Origin: a virus
Strand: one strand, 5' to 3'
DNA length: 34,277 nt
Virus genome (UHGV): UHGV-0115522
Below the pieces are notes generated by a model, which was not told the origin of the DNA, did no database searches, and was given only the letters and a program-made list of their open reading frames with translations. A program made the position numbers and the translations under genes. Below are positions 23,695-28,799 of this stretch, piece after piece; the stretch's first letter is position 1; every line of letters starts with the position of its first letter.

Positions 23695-24957
23695 ATGAGC
23701 ACTTCAGCACAAAACCAATCAATCGAAAATGTATCTATCCCTGACGTCCTGAATGCCGGTATCCCAGCCATTATCCAGAACATCCGGGCCGCGCAACGCC
23801 GCGTTAGTTGTGATGACCTCACAGCGCGTTTTTTTGATAATGCGGTTCAGTCAGCGGAGATGCTTCACGCACAGCTTATTGATGTTTATAACGCAGAAGC
23901 TGATAGCCATAACTCCCTGGTAGATGCAGCTGAAAATATGCAGTTGGATCTCGGTCTGAAGGGTAAAGAAATTGAAGAGCTTCAGCTACAAATTGAACAT
24001 TTGAAACGCCAGCAACAGGACGCGATCGACGATGCGACGCATGACGCCAACCAGCGTGCTGATAATGCCGAACGTATAAGCATTGAGCTGGAAACAAAAC
24101 TCAATGAAATGACCGCGATGGTTGAACTGCGGAACTCACAGATTTCAACGCTAAAATCTCAATATAAAGAGATCATGAAACTTGATCCTTTTAACCTTGA
24201 GAAACGCTATAACAAAGCTAAAAGCGAGCGACAGGAACTGCGTAAGCAGGTCGCCGATCTTAACCAACAGCTCAAAAAAACTATTAAAGATGCAAGCGAA
24301 GCGCGCGTGGCATTTGCTAATAAAAAAGCAGAGGTTACCGCGCTGGTTAATGAGAATGCCAAATTTGCGACGCTCAAGAAGGAAATGTATGGCATTACTG
24401 AGCGCCGTTTCCCTGCAAGCAAACTTCATCCGACGTTAGGGCAAATCTCCTTCTTCCCGCGCCTCCTGGCTTATGGGATCTCATCGCCTAAAGAGTTCAA
24501 TAACGAGCGTCCTTATATCGTTTCTAAGCTGGACTTTGCTTATCAGTTCTGCTGCGACATGGGCTATGCCATTGATATCCGAATCAACGAATGGTTGATG
24601 CCAAACTTCCAGCCGCTGGCCATTTTCCGCGAGTTCCAGCCGGAAGGTTGGGTAGAGTTCTTCCATGAATTGATCTGTAAAGAGATGGAAAGCCGCCGCC
24701 CGGAACTGGTCCGCCGTGTCGAGTGGGCGCAAGAGGTTATGTTGGCAGATGCAGAGCTGCCGTTCGAACCGGAATTTATTGATGATCTGGCAGCTAAAGG
24801 GCTGCATACCCTGTTTGATGTGGTTACCCGCCGTCATGAGCAGTTGGTTGTCGAATTGGGTTTAGAGGAAACAGCGGCAAGAAGACTTCTCGATGTTTGC
24901 TATGCACGTAGCGATGCATGGGAAAAAGAGAACGGCGGCACTATTTACGTTCGCTGA
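23695..24957 (+). CDS. Hypothetical protein with a long coiled-coil-like central region
   Basis: 420 aa; central about 200 residues are rich in E/K/Q/L heptad-like sequence. No catalytic motif recognised. Confidence 0.7.
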   Translation: MSTSAQNQSIENVSIPDVLNAGIPAIIQNIRAAQRRVSCDDLTARFFDNAVQSAEMLHAQLIDVYNAEADSHNSLVDAAENMQLDLGLKGKEIEELQLQIEHLKRQQQDAIDDATHDANQRADNAERISIELETKLNEMTAMVELRNSQISTLKSQYKEIMKLDPFNLEKRYNKAKSERQELRKQVADLNQQLKKTIKDASEARVAFANKKAEVTALVNENAKFATLKKEMYGITERRFPASKLHPTLGQISFFPRLLAYGISSPKEFNNERPYIVSKLDFAYQFCCDMGYAIDIRINEWLMPNFQPLAIFREFQPEGWVEFFHELICKEMESRRPELVRRVEWAQEVMLADAELPFEPEFIDDLAAKGLHTLFDVVTRRHEQLVVELGLEETAARRLLDVCYARSDAWEKENGGTIYVR

Positions 24958-25029
24958 CAGTTACAGTGTCACTTTTAATGCTGGTGGAGTGCGCCCACCA
25001 GCATTTTTTTCGTCCAATGAGGAGGGCAT

Positions 25030-25536
25030 TTGAGTATTTTCAATAAACACGCACACCAGGAACGTCCGTATATCGTCATAGTTGATATTGATGGAACAAT
25101 ATCAGAGGCAACTGAAGACAGACTGCATTTGCTTCCGCCACCAGGTAAAGGTGCATTAACAAAGGACTGGAACGAGTTTAATCTCGCCTGTGACACTGAT
25201 ACTCCCATAACTCCAGTTATTGATATTGTGCGCCAGTTATTTAACGTTTACACGGTCTGGTTTGTAACCGGGCGCTGTGAGATCGCAAGGGATAAAACAC
25301 GAGCCTGGCTGCGGAAGTACGTAACAAACGGGGCTGAGCCTTTGCTATCTATGCGTCCTGCCACCGATGACAGAAATGACGGCCCAGCAAAGATTGATCT
25401 CCTTAAGAAAATTGGTCTAAGTAAAATCGCGTTCGCGCTGGAAGATAAGATTGAAGTGGCGCGTGTTTTCAGGAGGCACGGCGTGCTTACGTTAATGGTC
25501 AGGGAGTATGAAAACGCGCTTCTCCATCAACAATAA
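25030..25536 (+). CDS. HAD-superfamily phosphatase-like protein
   Basis: 168 aa; N-terminal VIVDIDGTI fits the HAD motif I (DxDGT). TTG start with GGAGGG upstream. Confidence 0.6.
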   Translation: MSIFNKHAHQERPYIVIVDIDGTISEATEDRLHLLPPPGKGALTKDWNEFNLACDTDTPITPVIDIVRQLFNVYTVWFVTGRCEIARDKTRAWLRKYVTNGAEPLLSMRPATDDRNDGPAKIDLLKKIGLSKIAFALEDKIEVARVFRRHGVLTLMVREYENALLHQQ

Positions 25537-25552
25537 TTGCTCTAATAAATAT
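25536..25552 (+). promoter_or_regulatory. C1 operator-like site
   Basis: ATTGCTCTAATAAATAT (16/17), overlapping the stop of the HAD-like gene. Confidence 0.75.
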
Positions 25553-25634
25553 TGATTTTTAAAACAGAGAAAGTGAAAATAAAAACATGCCGCAAGGCGC
25601 GGCATGTATCCAATCAATCACAGGAGCTGAAAAT

Positions 25635-25721
25635 ATGAACACGGCATTCAAAATCATTATGGCCGCGATCTATTTCTGGCTGTTCTCTATCACTTTTGGC
25701 GGCATTGTCGCGCATGGGTAA
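25635..25721 (+). CDS. Unlisted 28-aa hydrophobic peptide
   Basis: MNTAFKIIMAAIYFWLFSITFGGIVAHG; AGGAG SD 8 nt upstream of ATG; stop TAA followed by the GGGGGA SD of the next gene. Below the 60-aa ORF cutoff. Confidence 0.4.
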   Translation: MNTAFKIIMAAIYFWLFSITFGGIVAHG

Positions 25722-25730
25722 GGGGGATGC

Positions 25731-26312
25731 ATGAAAGGCGAAGTGAAAGAGCGCGGCATGATTTTCAACGATGAGATGGTCCGGGCAATTCTTGGCGGGA
25801 ATAAAACACAGACTCGCAGGATTGTTGAAGAAAAATTCTATGGACGGGCAGTGGCCGCAGAGTTGCTTGCTAAACATTGTCCATATGGTCAACCGGGAGA
25901 TCGTATTTGGGTTCGTGAAACCTACCGGGTACATGGCAAAGCGACGGACGTCGCAACGCTGGTTTATCGCGCAAGCGTGCGTAACTCCTGGACAGAACAA
26001 ACGCACCGGGTTCCGGTTGAGGTTTGTAATAAGCCAGTATCAGAAAAGTGGACGCCATCAATTCACATGCCGCGCTGGGCATCGCGCATTTTGCTGGAAA
26101 TTACCAACGTGCGCGTTGAGCGGTTGAACGATATCAGCGAATGCGATGCAAGGGCTGAGGGCGCACCAACAGAATTTACCCTCATTGGCGATAAGCATTA
26201 CCCAGGTTTCCGTAGCCTATGGGAATCAATTTATGGCGAAGAAAGTTGGAACGCTAATCCCTGGGTTTGGGTAATCGAGTTTGAGCGTATTCAGGGGGCA
26301 ACCAGTGAGTAA
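25731..26312 (+). CDS. Hypothetical protein, possibly ASCH/PUA-like
   Basis: 193 aa; N-terminus MIFNDEMVRAILGGNKTQTRR resembles the start of ASCH-domain proteins as I recall. Moderate. Confidence 0.6.
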   Translation: MKGEVKERGMIFNDEMVRAILGGNKTQTRRIVEEKFYGRAVAAELLAKHCPYGQPGDRIWVRETYRVHGKATDVATLVYRASVRNSWTEQTHRVPVEVCNKPVSEKWTPSIHMPRWASRILLEITNVRVERLNDISECDARAEGAPTEFTLIGDKHYPGFRSLWESIYGEESWNANPWVWVIEFERIQGATSE

Positions 26313-26322
26313 CCGTTTTTAC

Positions 26323-26655
26323 ATGATGTGCTCGCGTGAAACTGTGGGTAATAACGCTTCATTCCATTGCCATAACGGCAATGGTTACAGCTCTGATATC
26401 GATCGCGCTCATGTTTACACGCTGGAAGAAGCCCAAAAAGCCTGGAATTGTGGGCGAGATATCGAGCCACCTGTTAGCGCTAATCTTGATGTTGCTGGTG
26501 CCAGGCTGGTTTCGGTTCTATTTGGTGATTACCGCGACGACTTCTTTCAGCCTGAAGAAGTTGATGTAGTGCGAGAAGCATTAAACGAGCAAAGTGTTGA
26601 TAACGATGATGCTCATGCGGAAATCATCAAAAAAATGAAGCTGCTAACTCACTAA
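26323..26655 (+). CDS. Hypothetical acidic protein
   Basis: In-frame ATG at 26323 (MMCSRETVGNN...) just after the upstream stop; the listed 26281 start overlaps the preceding gene by 32 nt. Confidence 0.5.
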   Translation: MMCSRETVGNNASFHCHNGNGYSSDIDRAHVYTLEEAQKAWNCGRDIEPPVSANLDVAGARLVSVLFGDYRDDFFQPEEVDVVREALNEQSVDNDDAHAEIIKKMKLLTH

Positions 26656-26703
26656 ATTATCAATTATGGTGCTATCACCTACGACACCGAGAGAAATTTT
26701 ATA

Positions 26704-26826
26704 ATGTCAAAAGTAAATGTTTTGATTTTTTCAGCAATTGTAGGCTTTGGTTTTACTGCTGGAGTGCAGATTTATATTGCGTGGGAAAAAATCATCAACT
26801 ACGCATGGAGTTGTTTTATTAAGTGA
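26704..26826 (+). CDS. Unlisted 40-aa hydrophobic small protein
   Basis: MSKVNVLIFSAIVGFGFTAGVQIYIAWEKIINYAWSCFIK; stop 26824-26826 followed 8 nt later by the next ATG with TGAGGTAAG SD. Confidence 0.4.
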   Translation: MSKVNVLIFSAIVGFGFTAGVQIYIAWEKIINYAWSCFIK

Positions 26827-26833
26827 GGTAAGT

Positions 26834-27127
26834 ATGTGGAGAGGTAATAGTCATGGCAAAAGCCAGATGATACTTACCGAATATCAATTCGACCACAAAA
26901 CTAATGAATCACGATCAGTATATTTGCTTCGGCACAATAGCCGTGTCAGGAATACCGTGTTAGAGCAAAATCTGACAGTTGAAATGGATAATTTCGGGAA
27001 CTTCAAGCCAACAATATCGCTTGATGATTTCCCGCGTGGTTTAAGCGAAAGAGAAGCAATGCTGAAATTAGCAGAATGGCTACAAAGGTTGAGCATTGTA
27101 ATTGAAGATAACTGGAGCACCCCATAA
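26834..27127 (+). CDS. Hypothetical protein
   Basis: ATG 26834 with SD; the listed 26747 start lies in a different frame from the small ORF it would overlap, so the shorter start is preferred. Confidence 0.5.
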   Translation: MWRGNSHGKSQMILTEYQFDHKTNESRSVYLLRHNSRVRNTVLEQNLTVEMDNFGNFKPTISLDDFPRGLSEREAMLKLAEWLQRLSIVIEDNWSTP

Positions 27128-27291
27128 TGAAAAAGAAACAGTTTTGGGCGACGTTTATATTTGTCTGTGTTTGTGGTTTTTTTGTGGCTTTGGCTGGTGG
27201 CGTTGAATGGGGAACGGAGAGCTGCGGTGCATTGGCTGGTAGCACCTTATTCCTCGTTGGTGCGTTAGCTATATCTCTATCTGGAGACTGA
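27127..27291 (+). CDS. Unlisted 54-aa membrane peptide
   Basis: MKKKQFWATFIFVCVCGFFVALAGGVEWGTESCGALAGSTLFLVGALAISLSGD; ATG overlaps the preceding stop (TAATG); two hydrophobic segments. Confidence 0.45.
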   Translation: MKKKQFWATFIFVCVCGFFVALAGGVEWGTESCGALAGSTLFLVGALAISLSGD

Positions 27292-27357
27292 TTATAACTT
27301 TATTACCCTGCTGTTACGGCAGGGAAGCAGCCACACTGTGTAACTGATTAAATTTAT

Positions 27358-27732
27358 ATGATGACATTCAAACATTTTCTTGACTGCCCATTATGGGCGG
27401 CAGCCGCAGGCTATGATTTTAATTATATGGATTGTATGTCTTATAGCGCTACTGCATACGACCATTCGTTCAGTCTGCTGTTTAACTCTTTAAAGATATT
27501 GCCTGAAACAGAAGTAGGGGAGCTTCATTTGTGTCTATTGGACTTTATCGTGGCTGTAGTTGGTATTGCTGTCTGGCCTTTTATTTTCTGGCTGGTGGCT
27601 ATTGTAGTGTGGTTTAAGTGCAAGACATACCGGGAAAGGTATTTCTTAGGCGATGGAATGACTGATATTGCCAAAATGAACATTGAAAAATGGACTAAGG
27701 AATGTGAAAAGAAATGGCGCAAAAAGAAATGA
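27358..27732 (+). CDS. Hypothetical membrane protein
   Basis: 124 aa with a hydrophobic segment (LCLLDFIVAVVGIAVWPFIFWLVAIVVWF) and a basic C-terminus. Confidence 0.55.
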   Translation: MMTFKHFLDCPLWAAAAGYDFNYMDCMSYSATAYDHSFSLLFNSLKILPETEVGELHLCLLDFIVAVVGIAVWPFIFWLVAIVVWFKCKTYRERYFLGDGMTDIAKMNIEKWTKECEKKWRKKK

Positions 27733-28463
27733 CCAGAATCACTAAAGAGCGTATATCAGAGATTATTTCCCGTATCGAAATGTATGGTCACGGTGCTGGA
27801 TATACGGCAGATGAAGTATTTGGACTTGCAAAAATGGCGTTAGCAACTAGCAAAGATGATAAAAAAATGAAGCTTATCGACTTGTTAGTGAAGGAGCTGC
27901 CTAAGTGCGGCGGGTGGCCTGATGGTATGATCGATTGTCGCCTGCTCAGTGCCAATTTAATGGCGCCATGCGCGACTTTTGCTTTTGGCTCAGACCACAA
28001 AAAAGACACGTTCTTTGGGCGCAATTTTTGTTGTGAGATTGAGCTTCCAATTGGTGATCTTGATAGCGATGAATACCAGTCAGTTGTCACTCGCGAACAA
28101 TACGAATCAGCTCTCATAGCGTCGCAGAAAGTCGAGTTCAATGGCGATGAACTTGAAAGTAAGGCTTACAGGTTGGATTTTGGGCAATGGCTGGAACAGC
28201 AACGCGGGAAAATCGATGTGGACTGCGGTTGTGTGTCTGCGGAAACATTCATGCACTGGTTGCGGATAGCTTATGAGGCTGGGAACCATCCGGATCTTCC
28301 GGATAGTTCCCAACAGGCGCCCAGGAAAAGCGTAAAAACCACTCTGGAAAGAGGCTATCTTGAGGCCGCATTAAAGATTAAGCCGGGCCATACGCTAGGC
28401 GTCATTGATGCCATGTTGGTTCATGAAATGGCTAAGGCGTTATTGCCACTGGAGGCTGATTAA
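27714..28463 (+). CDS. Hypothetical protein
   Basis: 249 aa; ATG overlaps the end of the preceding gene by 19 nt; no motif recognised. Confidence 0.6.
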   Translation: MAQKEMTRITKERISEIISRIEMYGHGAGYTADEVFGLAKMALATSKDDKKMKLIDLLVKELPKCGGWPDGMIDCRLLSANLMAPCATFAFGSDHKKDTFFGRNFCCEIELPIGDLDSDEYQSVVTREQYESALIASQKVEFNGDELESKAYRLDFGQWLEQQRGKIDVDCGCVSAETFMHWLRIAYEAGNHPDLPDSSQQAPRKSVKTTLERGYLEAALKIKPGHTLGVIDAMLVHEMAKALLPLEAD

Positions 28464-28500
28464 ATTCCTGATAAAGCTGATATCTGATCACCATGCTAAA

Positions 28501-28529
28501 ATCCCCTCAATTCACAGAGGGGATTTTTG
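28501..28529 (+). terminator. Rho-independent terminator
   Basis: atcccctc-aattcaca-gaggggat followed by TTTTT, 38 nt after the stop of the upstream gene. Confidence 0.55.
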
Positions 28530-28532
28530 TAT

Positions 28533-28799
28533 ATGTTGCATAGAGTTTTATGGAAAAGCGTTATTGTCGGTGCGATGCTGGCTATGTCCGGGTGTGCAAT
28601 GGTGCAATACAATGACGGTGAAAAGGTAAGCATCCAGTCTGATGGCTGGTATGGGCTGGATAGCCTGCAAAAAACCGCAGATAAAGCCTGTCAGCAATAT
28701 GGAAAGTCTAAAGCCGTATATCAGCATAGCGCGAACGCTAATCCACATCTCGCGCCCGGCACGGGCGTTCAGAACACTATTTGGAAATGCGAACCATAA
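28533..28799 (+). CDS. Small putative lipoprotein
   Basis: ATG 28533 (MLHRVLWKSVIVGAMLAMSGC...) with signal-peptide-like N-terminus and a Cys at a lipobox-like position. Confidence 0.55.
   Translation: MLHRVLWKSVIVGAMLAMSGCAMVQYNDGEKVSIQSDGWYGLDSLQKTADKACQQYGKSKAVYQHSANANPHLAPGTGVQNTIWKCEP

Follow-up and report, generated by a model that had tools for sequence, protein, structure and literature searches.

In the virus genome UHGV-0115522, a stretch of 34,277 nucleotides (nt) that is called the window here and numbered along its given strand, three open reading frames (ORFs) of 28, 40, and 54 codons are interleaved with the larger genes of an accessory operon that follows the gene pap. We consider it very likely that each of these ORFs is a genuine gene and that its product is a very small protein of the inner membrane. 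The operon carrying them is nonessential and highly mosaic. The most useful result concerns the first of the three, ORF1, a conserved gene that is missing from the reference annotations of phages P1 and P7. P1 is among the most used and best annotated phages, and in Enterobacteriaceae, resistance genes are commonly found on its relatives.

Positions 25000 to 28500 of the window are 100% identical to several 66- to 137-kb plasmids of Escherichia coli, E. albertii, Shigella, and Salmonella, and the parts that align to phages P1, P7, and SJ46 are 92 to 98% identical to them, which identifies the window, at the level of sequence, as a P1/P7/SJ46-like phage-plasmid. Homologs of pmgS (23695 to 24957) and pap (25030 to 25536) lie upstream of all three ORFs. 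The accessory operon 3' of pap is controlled by the C1 repressor through the operator Op88/OpmgT, and its lead annotated gene is pmgT in P1 and upf86.8 in P7. This part of the genome has been described as variable region 8 of P1-like phage-plasmids (PMC9603915), and P1 pmgT, pmgU, and pmgV were nonessential in a CRISPR interference screen (PMC10695390).

A sequence-only reading of the window had proposed three ORFs of these lengths, each with a start codon that is translationally coupled or preceded by a Shine-Dalgarno sequence and each encoding one or two predicted transmembrane helices. All three were found on the plus strand with ATG starts, at 25635 to 25721 (ORF1), 26704 to 26826 (ORF2), and 27127 to 27291 (ORF3), where they fill the three spaces left between larger genes. 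In 19-residue Kyte-Doolittle windows, their maximum scores are 2.10, 1.83, and 2.36, respectively, all above the membrane-helix threshold, and ORF3 has a second hydrophobic stretch at about 2.0, in agreement with a predicted topology of one helix for ORF1, one for ORF2, and two for ORF3. The proposed start signals are clear for ORF1 and ORF3 but weak for ORF2. The ORFs had also been called unlisted, which is correct for the supplied track of ORFs of at least 60 amino acids (aa) but not for the databases: RefSeq annotates ORF3 as WP_152950163.1 and a 44-aa form of ORF1 as WP_001312275.1, and the homolog of ORF2 in phage SJ46 is annotated as J46_0090.

Open frames of 28 to 54 codons are not rare; in the 7-kb neighborhood, 118 ORFs reach 20 aa or more. 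The mere presence of the three frames is therefore no evidence, and because frames this short may arise by chance, we tested conservation of the coding frame. Loci were retrieved through the neighboring genes pap, pmgS, and a 97-aa gene, so that the sample was not chosen on the small ORFs. Among 83 loci found via pap, the 28-codon frame of ORF1 is intact in 80, runs off the contig end in 1, and is cut in 2. Among 66 loci found via the 97-aa gene, 62 have an intact 40-codon ATG frame for ORF2; 2 of the other 4 have lost the stop codon (giving 47 aa), 1 has a CTG start, and 1 is frameshifted. ORF3 is frameshifted in 1 of 12 sampled loci and also in plasmid CP030285. Frame disruption with intact neighbors, which had been named as the observation that would speak against the ORFs, is thus rare in the sampled viral loci (two cases for ORF1, one frameshift and one lost start for ORF2, and one case for ORF3), and the reading frames are under selection, as the substitution patterns below show.

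ORF1 at the head of the operon

ORF1 (MNTAFKIIMAAIYFWLFSITFGGIVAHG) is the first cistron of the operon and codes for 28 aa with one predicted membrane helix and a grand average of hydropathy of 1.30. Its AGGAG ribosome-binding site (25622 to 25626) lies 8 nt 5' of the ATG. The gene after it starts at 25731 and has an AAGGGGG ribosome-binding site, within which the TAA of ORF1 (25719 to 25721) falls. The same ORF is present in the pap-pmgT spacer of both P1 and P7, unannotated in either, with two differences within the ORF, both synonymous. It was found by tblastn in 873 plasmids. A protein search with the 44-aa form retrieved near-identical copies only. When one genome per species was scanned with an alignment of PmgS, the only loci retrieved were two near-identical ones from E. 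coli, and a metagenome scan with the leader motif gave at least 120 matches, mostly attributable to chance since the pattern is loose; one new lineage, L311, was among the matches listed.

Since site counts among close relatives were too few to be significant, we relied on diverged lineages, namely elements with a PmgS protein about 69 to 75% identical to that of the window. In these lineages, the same order is found: an invariant operator, a -10-like element, a hairpin, an invariant CAATCAATCA, GGAGC, and the ATG of an ORF1 homolog. The four homologs, one of 46 aa (MHTVFKLAMAAFYIWIFTIVFTGIA...), one of 48 aa (MNTAFKLAMAAFYFWIFCIAFNGLV...), and two of 53 aa (MNAFLKLAVTAFYIWMFTVAVTSF... and MHLIFKLAITAFYAWMLTVVITSF...), sit at the unchanged position, and their first approximately 25 residues are homologous to ORF1. 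The motif FKLAMAAFY.W.F of the hydrophobic segment is kept between lineages, with codon position 2 the least variable; between the window and locus L166, at 61% DNA identity, there are 9, 5, and 15 differences at codon positions 1, 2, and 3. Pairwise ratios of nonsynonymous to synonymous differences per site (pN/pS) between lineages are 0.23 to 0.54 in frame, with pS at 0.67 to 0.93, and about 0.4 to 3.4 in the other two frames. For the whole ORF including its C-terminal tail, pN/pS is 0.33 between L173 and L311 and 0.16 between L166 and L261. In every lineage, the stop codon overlaps the next start or lies no more than 9 nt away from it (1-nt and 4-nt overlaps or a 5-nt gap in the relatives). 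The gene that follows varies, being one for a protein of about 100 aa in the diverged lineages, pmgT in P1, and a 193-aa gene in the window. Judged by eye only, the protein of about 100 aa is helix-turn-helix-like. From the shared order, the substitution pattern, and the coupling to the next gene, we conclude from sequence that ORF1 is a conserved first cistron with a single-helix membrane peptide as its predicted product. This amounts to a concrete annotation correction at the head of a C1-controlled operon.

The substitution pattern also bears on a different explanation of ORF1, that it is a regulatory upstream ORF whose translation opens or couples the next ribosome-binding site or protects the mRNA, with a peptide that has no function of its own. 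The position of ORF1 suits such an ORF: it lies in the 5' leader right after the promoter and a hairpin, its stop adjoins or overlaps the start signals of the next gene in every lineage, and it stays constant while the downstream gene changes between lineages. In the P1 lineage, moreover, ORF1 is pared down to the hydrophobic segment and shows no significant constraint among close relatives. However, a pure coupling ORF would not require the peptide to be conserved, and here the amino acid sequence of the hydrophobic segment, instead of varying freely, is conserved with synonymous sites near saturation, and the C-terminal tails are constrained within sublineages by the two ratios given above. 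A pure coupling role may hold in the P1 lineage, yet the conservation of the peptide contradicts it, and we regard it as unlikely for ORF1 overall.

A longer form of ORF1 was considered and rejected. The 44-aa RefSeq form, annotated on a plasmid 100% identical to the window over 25000 to 28500, starts at 25587. Of 155 close copies in which the core is intact, about 31 have a stop or a 2-nt indel within the 16 added codons; the extension overlaps the leader hairpin, would begin at the predicted transcript start, and is missing from the diverged lineages. The NCBI start is probably wrong.

Several observations point to recombination at this gene. Many different sequences follow ...GIVAHG in other elements (proteins P0022 to P0026), one of them running in frame into a DUF551 domain, which indicates that recombination has repeatedly joined variable cargo to the constant leader at the last codons of ORF1 (GGGTA|A). 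The interior of ORF1 likewise marks a cargo-insertion junction in the two elements in which it is interrupted (L136, 2606 to 2665; L142, 2608 to 2667), where the inserted cassette codes, about 600 nt on, for a protein of at least 433 aa beginning MSMLRLNKTYKQQRF. An ORF1-like class in IncF conjugative plasmids (93% identity, about 320 plasmids) was set aside as a remnant and not independent evidence, being a fragment that lacks the first codon. In L165 (NZ_CP023845.1, 2950 to 3165), this fragment is bounded by IS1 on one side and, on the other, by the 3' end of a convergent type I hsdR gene, in agreement with an older P1 annotation that notes similarity to sequence downstream of hsdR in R124/3. 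This suggests that, at the ORF1 junction, a P1-like element formerly harbored a type I restriction locus.

ORF2, ORF3, and their relatives in other phages

ORF2 codes for 40 aa, with one predicted membrane helix followed by a YIAWE..IN.AWS tail, and its TGA (26824 to 26826) shares bases with the GAGG that precedes the start of the following gene at 26834. It belongs to PHROG family 5525: residues 1 to 40 align to profile positions 1 to 40 of phrog_5525 with an E value of 1.1e-24. Members of this family, including J46_0090 and Orf32 of the Uetakevirus-type phage phiv142-3 (E = 7e-30), share with ORF2 its length, its single helix, and the pattern IGFG..AG..YIAWE..IN.AWS, and, like ORF2, they are found among accessory early genes beside Ea22/Eaa-like genes. 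Nothing structural distinguishes ORF2 from the family, only its neighbors being unrelated, and membership names the gene without explaining its function.

By tblastn, ORF2 was found in 226 plasmids, nearly all P1-like in size. Homologs outside this group, also of 40 aa, are present in phiv142-3 and in phage EC.W1-9. The phiv142-3 homolog is 47% identical to ORF2 in protein and 57% in DNA, and of the 19 residues out of 40 that are identical, 11 are encoded by different codons. In both phages, the homolog is an annotated gene flanked by Eaa or Ea22-like genes and by the next gene, with start and stop overlapping, and a comparison of these neighbors with those of ORF2 in the window revealed no relationship. 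ORF2 is therefore self-contained and mobile between types of phage. We had considered that it pairs functionally with the 97-aa gene, but rejected this because the phiv142-3 homolog has unrelated neighbors.

ORF3 codes for 54 aa and is a predicted two-helix membrane hairpin with an LAGGVEWGT..CG loop. Its start overlaps the stop of the upstream 97-aa gene in a TAATG (27125 to 27129), with a GGAG at 27114 to 27117. AlphaFold2, run on an alignment of 31 family members, places helices at residues 3 to 27 and 31 to 51 with a mean predicted local distance difference test score of 88.5. Three classes of alleles, of 54, 52, and 58 aa, occupy the same site after the 97-aa gene, all with TAATG starts; about 44 plasmids carry ORF3. 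Pairwise ratios of nonsynonymous to synonymous substitution rates (dN/dS) between the alleles are 0.15 to 0.44, synonymous sites having reached saturation between the most distant classes, and the one indel among them is an in-frame loss or gain of a 3-nt codon.

The 97-aa and 124-aa genes that flank ORF3 are 7 nt apart in 68 of the 71 loci with both flanks. In the window, they are separated by 231 nt, made up of ORF3 and a hairpin at 27306 to 27324 on the plus strand (CCCTGCTG-TTA-CGGCAGGG), which, as read from the sequence, has an 8-bp stem with no T-run after it and forms the end of the unit. The hairpin is also present with the B allele of ORF3 (L059) and is missing together with ORF3 in SJ46. 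Since ORF and hairpin are gained or lost together relative to SJ46, the unit looks like a small gene cassette that was inserted.

When 1.84 billion representative proteins were searched by profile, 35 clusters of 51 to 76 aa that share the loop motif were obtained. We call this the LAGGxEWGT family; it was delimited in this analysis and is not curated. The alignment of 31 members (ORF3 and 30 diverged ones) has a nearly invariant pattern, G..(5)..A.G..WGT...G.....T, with the residues G17, A23, G25, W28, G29, T30, G34, and T40, and both the alignment and the AlphaFold2 model give ORF3 two hydrophobic helices joined by a short GG-x-x-WGT loop. Family members lie in a lambdoid nin region after NinB and NinG and in a P2-like early operon just upstream of gpA, and further ones lie within strings of small overlapping genes; they share with ORF3 its length, two helices, start/stop overlaps, and an early or accessory location in temperate phages. 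Profile searches found no Pfam or NCBIfam model that covers the family. The match of ORF3 to phrog_22580 is weak (E = 9e-4), and 5 of the 31 members match it, the best with an E value of 5.8e-7. A fold search with the ORF3 model against viral structures found nothing better than E = 2, an uninformative outcome that is expected for a bare helical hairpin. ORF2 was thus already a PHROG member and ORF3 already a RefSeq protein, which is now placed in a wider, uncatalogued family.

These relatives decide against the view that one or more of the three ORFs are chance frames in AT-rich spacers, conserved through kinship or through another role of the DNA or RNA. Short open frames are abundant, as noted above, most homologs in the plasmid collection are more than 90% identical, so that their intactness says little, and the site-count ratios within the P1-like set are not significant. 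Against this, the diverged homologs of ORF1 and ORF2 keep frame, length, start, and hydrophobic pattern at 55 to 61% DNA identity, ORF3 does so with synonymous sites saturated, and ORF2 and the ORF3 family recur beside unrelated neighbors in other phage types. The diverged homologs largely refute the chance-frame explanation, to which we give very little weight.

We see equally little prospect for two other identities of ORF3, a holin- or antiholin-like protein that times lysis, or a signal peptide with a short secreted peptide. Small class II holins and pinholins have two membrane helices in a small protein, as does ORF3 in its roughly 55 aa, and by reading, its MKKKQ, hydrophobic stretch, and ALA-GG resemble a signal peptidase I site. 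Yet ORF3 lies in an early C1-controlled accessory operon with no adjoining endolysin, beside genes that match PHROG families of unknown function; members of its family occur in nin regions and in early operons of the P2 type; and it is missing from most P1-like elements, which still lyse. The hydrophobic stretch of about 20 residues exceeds the typical length of a signal peptide, and a lipoprotein is not indicated by reading either, as ORF3 has no lipobox [LVI][ASTVI][GAS]C (FVC and VCVC put Val at -1) and ORF1 has no Cys. The fold search favored neither a holin nor a secreted peptide.

Several findings weigh against the conclusion that all three ORFs are functional genes for membrane proteins. 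An AT-rich foreign cassette cuts ORF1 at codon 19 in 2 of the 83 elements, and ORF3 is missing from 68 of the 71 loci with both flanks, so that both are dispensable for persistence of the element. Within the P1 lineage, ORF1 has 6 synonymous and 9 nonsynonymous variable sites (ratio, 0.42), with no significant constraint, and the changes include G22D and G23D inside the helix. It stops just past the helix in this lineage, without the C-terminal tail of its relatives, and could be a truncated remnant there. For ORF2, the site-count ratio within the P1-like set is 0.65, again not significant, and the upstream signal is a weak GAGAG about 10 nt before the ATG. The profile and fold searches matched none of the three to a family of known function, and that the peptides are expressed and seated in the membrane is something we infer.

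In profile searches, ORF1 had no match in Pfam, NCBIfam, or PHROG, and ORF2 and ORF3 had none in Pfam or NCBIfam. Small single-helix membrane proteins of bacteria and phages have been reviewed (PMC12648545), and ORF1 and ORF2 are like them in size, in their single hydrophobic helix, and in being routinely omitted by annotation. The same searches gave no sequence relationship of ORF1 or ORF2 to named small membrane proteins or type I toxins.

Operon leader, expression, and possible roles

The leader of the operon begins with the C1 repressor operator ATTGCTCTAATAAATAT (25536 to 25552, plus strand), which is annotated at the homologous position in P1 (OpmgT/Op88) and P7 [Op(hea)], is identical in the window, and is invariant in the four diverged lineages. 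The operator overlaps with pap at the stop codon and with the operon promoter at the -35 element. This predicted sigma-70 promoter, P1pmgT (25552 to 25580, plus strand), was transferred from the P1 annotation, with a -35 element TTGATT at 25552 to 25557 and a -10 element GAAAAT at 25575 to 25580. The -10 core A.AAT is conserved across lineages, and the start site is a prediction. A stem-loop at 25585 to 25607 (plus strand), identified by folding and by its conservation across lineages, lies at or near the predicted 5' end of the transcript, with a folding energy of -17.2 kcal/mol and a z-score of -3.1. A hairpin of different sequence occupies the same place in L166 (1450 to 1472), L172 (1758 to 1782), L173 (3916 to 3936), and L311, with two compensatory stem pairs. 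Given the P1-annotated -10 element, the transcript would begin roughly where the stem does (approximately 25587), and the mRNA would then carry a stabilizing 5'-terminal stem-loop; the hairpin could serve as an mRNA stabilizer, a processing site, or a terminator for convergent transcription. Downstream of it, the decamer CAATCAATCA (25611 to 25620) and the ribosome-binding site of ORF1 occupy columns (25611 to 25626, plus strand) that are invariant in a four-lineage alignment, the decamer being unchanged in all five lineages despite the diverging leader around it. In the folds predicted for all four lineages, the decamer, the ribosome-binding site, and the ATG of ORF1 all remain unpaired.

Type I toxins such as TisB, ShoB, DinQ, and Ibs are small and strongly hydrophobic. 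Least probable of the explanations considered is that ORF1, at 28 strongly hydrophobic aa, is such a toxin, restrained by an antisense RNA terminating at the leader hairpin, which on the minus strand (25607 to 25585), where it is followed by TTTTTATTTTC, does score as an intrinsic terminator: the T-run on that strand is not conserved in L166, L172, and L173, although the hairpin is; a consensus scan of 25400 to 26830, which a weak promoter could escape, found no promoter-like site on the minus strand; an Rfam scan gave nothing above threshold (GcvB, at 20 bits against a threshold of 42, was driven by the hairpin), so that neither scan indicates the antisense arrangement of type I toxins; and ORF1 is already a C1-repressed first cistron with a ribosome-binding site that is unpaired and not sequestered.

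If the three ORFs are genes for small inner-membrane proteins, as we favor, the following course of expression may be envisaged. In a lysogen, C1 bound to the operator at 25536 to 25552 would hold the operon off. Upon derepression, a common transcript would run from about 25587, its mRNA beginning with the stable hairpin. ORF1 would be translated first, from its strong, unpaired ribosome-binding site, and its stop, meeting the start signals of the next gene, would pass translation on; ORF2 and ORF3 would be translated likewise, in series with their neighbors. The peptides would then enter the inner membrane, ORF1 as a single helix, ORF2 as a helix with a short amphipathic tail, and ORF3 as a two-helix hairpin.

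Each ORF is an independent module with different neighbors in different phages, which makes it probable that the peptides act singly; the most likely mode of action is binding to a membrane protein of the host or phage. An accessory, lone-acting character is also suggested by the dispensability of the region for lytic growth and by the absence of ORF3, and sometimes of ORF1, from viable relatives. Envelope remodeling, exclusion of other phages, and counter-defense are conjectural candidates for their roles.

A bolder proposal has two separate parts. In the first, ORF1 is an unrecognized P1 gene that forms a leader module with the hairpin and CAATCAATCA, its membrane-inserting peptide tethering or gating the expression of recombined cargo; such a module would explain why a constant leader is found with swapped downstream genes. 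In the second, the LAGGxEWGT family is a widespread class of host-membrane effectors, for example, in exclusion or counter-defense. We hold this proposal to be rather improbable. Tiny membrane proteins are recurrent in the mosaic accessory regions of temperate phages and are seldom tested, and such regions have yielded many functions in phage-host interaction. The LAGGxEWGT family and PHROG family 5525 recur across unrelated phage types and are therefore reasonable candidates for functional screens. The three ORFs mark an annotation gap, the novelty is modest, and the understanding of P1 is unchanged unless a function is found for one of the three ORFs.

The larger operon genes in the window matched only PHROG families of unknown function. 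In P1, this variable region also contains the small ORFs upfM, upfN, and upfO (about 37 to 65 aa, between pmgV and hot), likewise of unknown function, which differ from the three described here in position; ORF1 lies upstream of pmgT, where no gene is listed in P1 or P7. Two of the larger products in the window are mosaic: a 116-aa protein (26305 to 26655) has an N-terminal half that matches phrog_2457 and a C-terminal half that matches phrog_3876, and successive segments of a 249-aa protein (27714 to 28463) match at least five different PHROG families. The part of the operon downstream of ORF3 is rich in envelope proteins, with a 124-aa protein (27358 to 27732, phrog_2638) that looks membrane associated by its long hydrophobic stretch LLDFIVAVVGIAVWPFIFWLVAIVVWF and a protein of 88 to 90 aa (28527 to 28799, phrog_7757) with a lipoprotein-like N terminus, ...VIVGAMLAMSGC.

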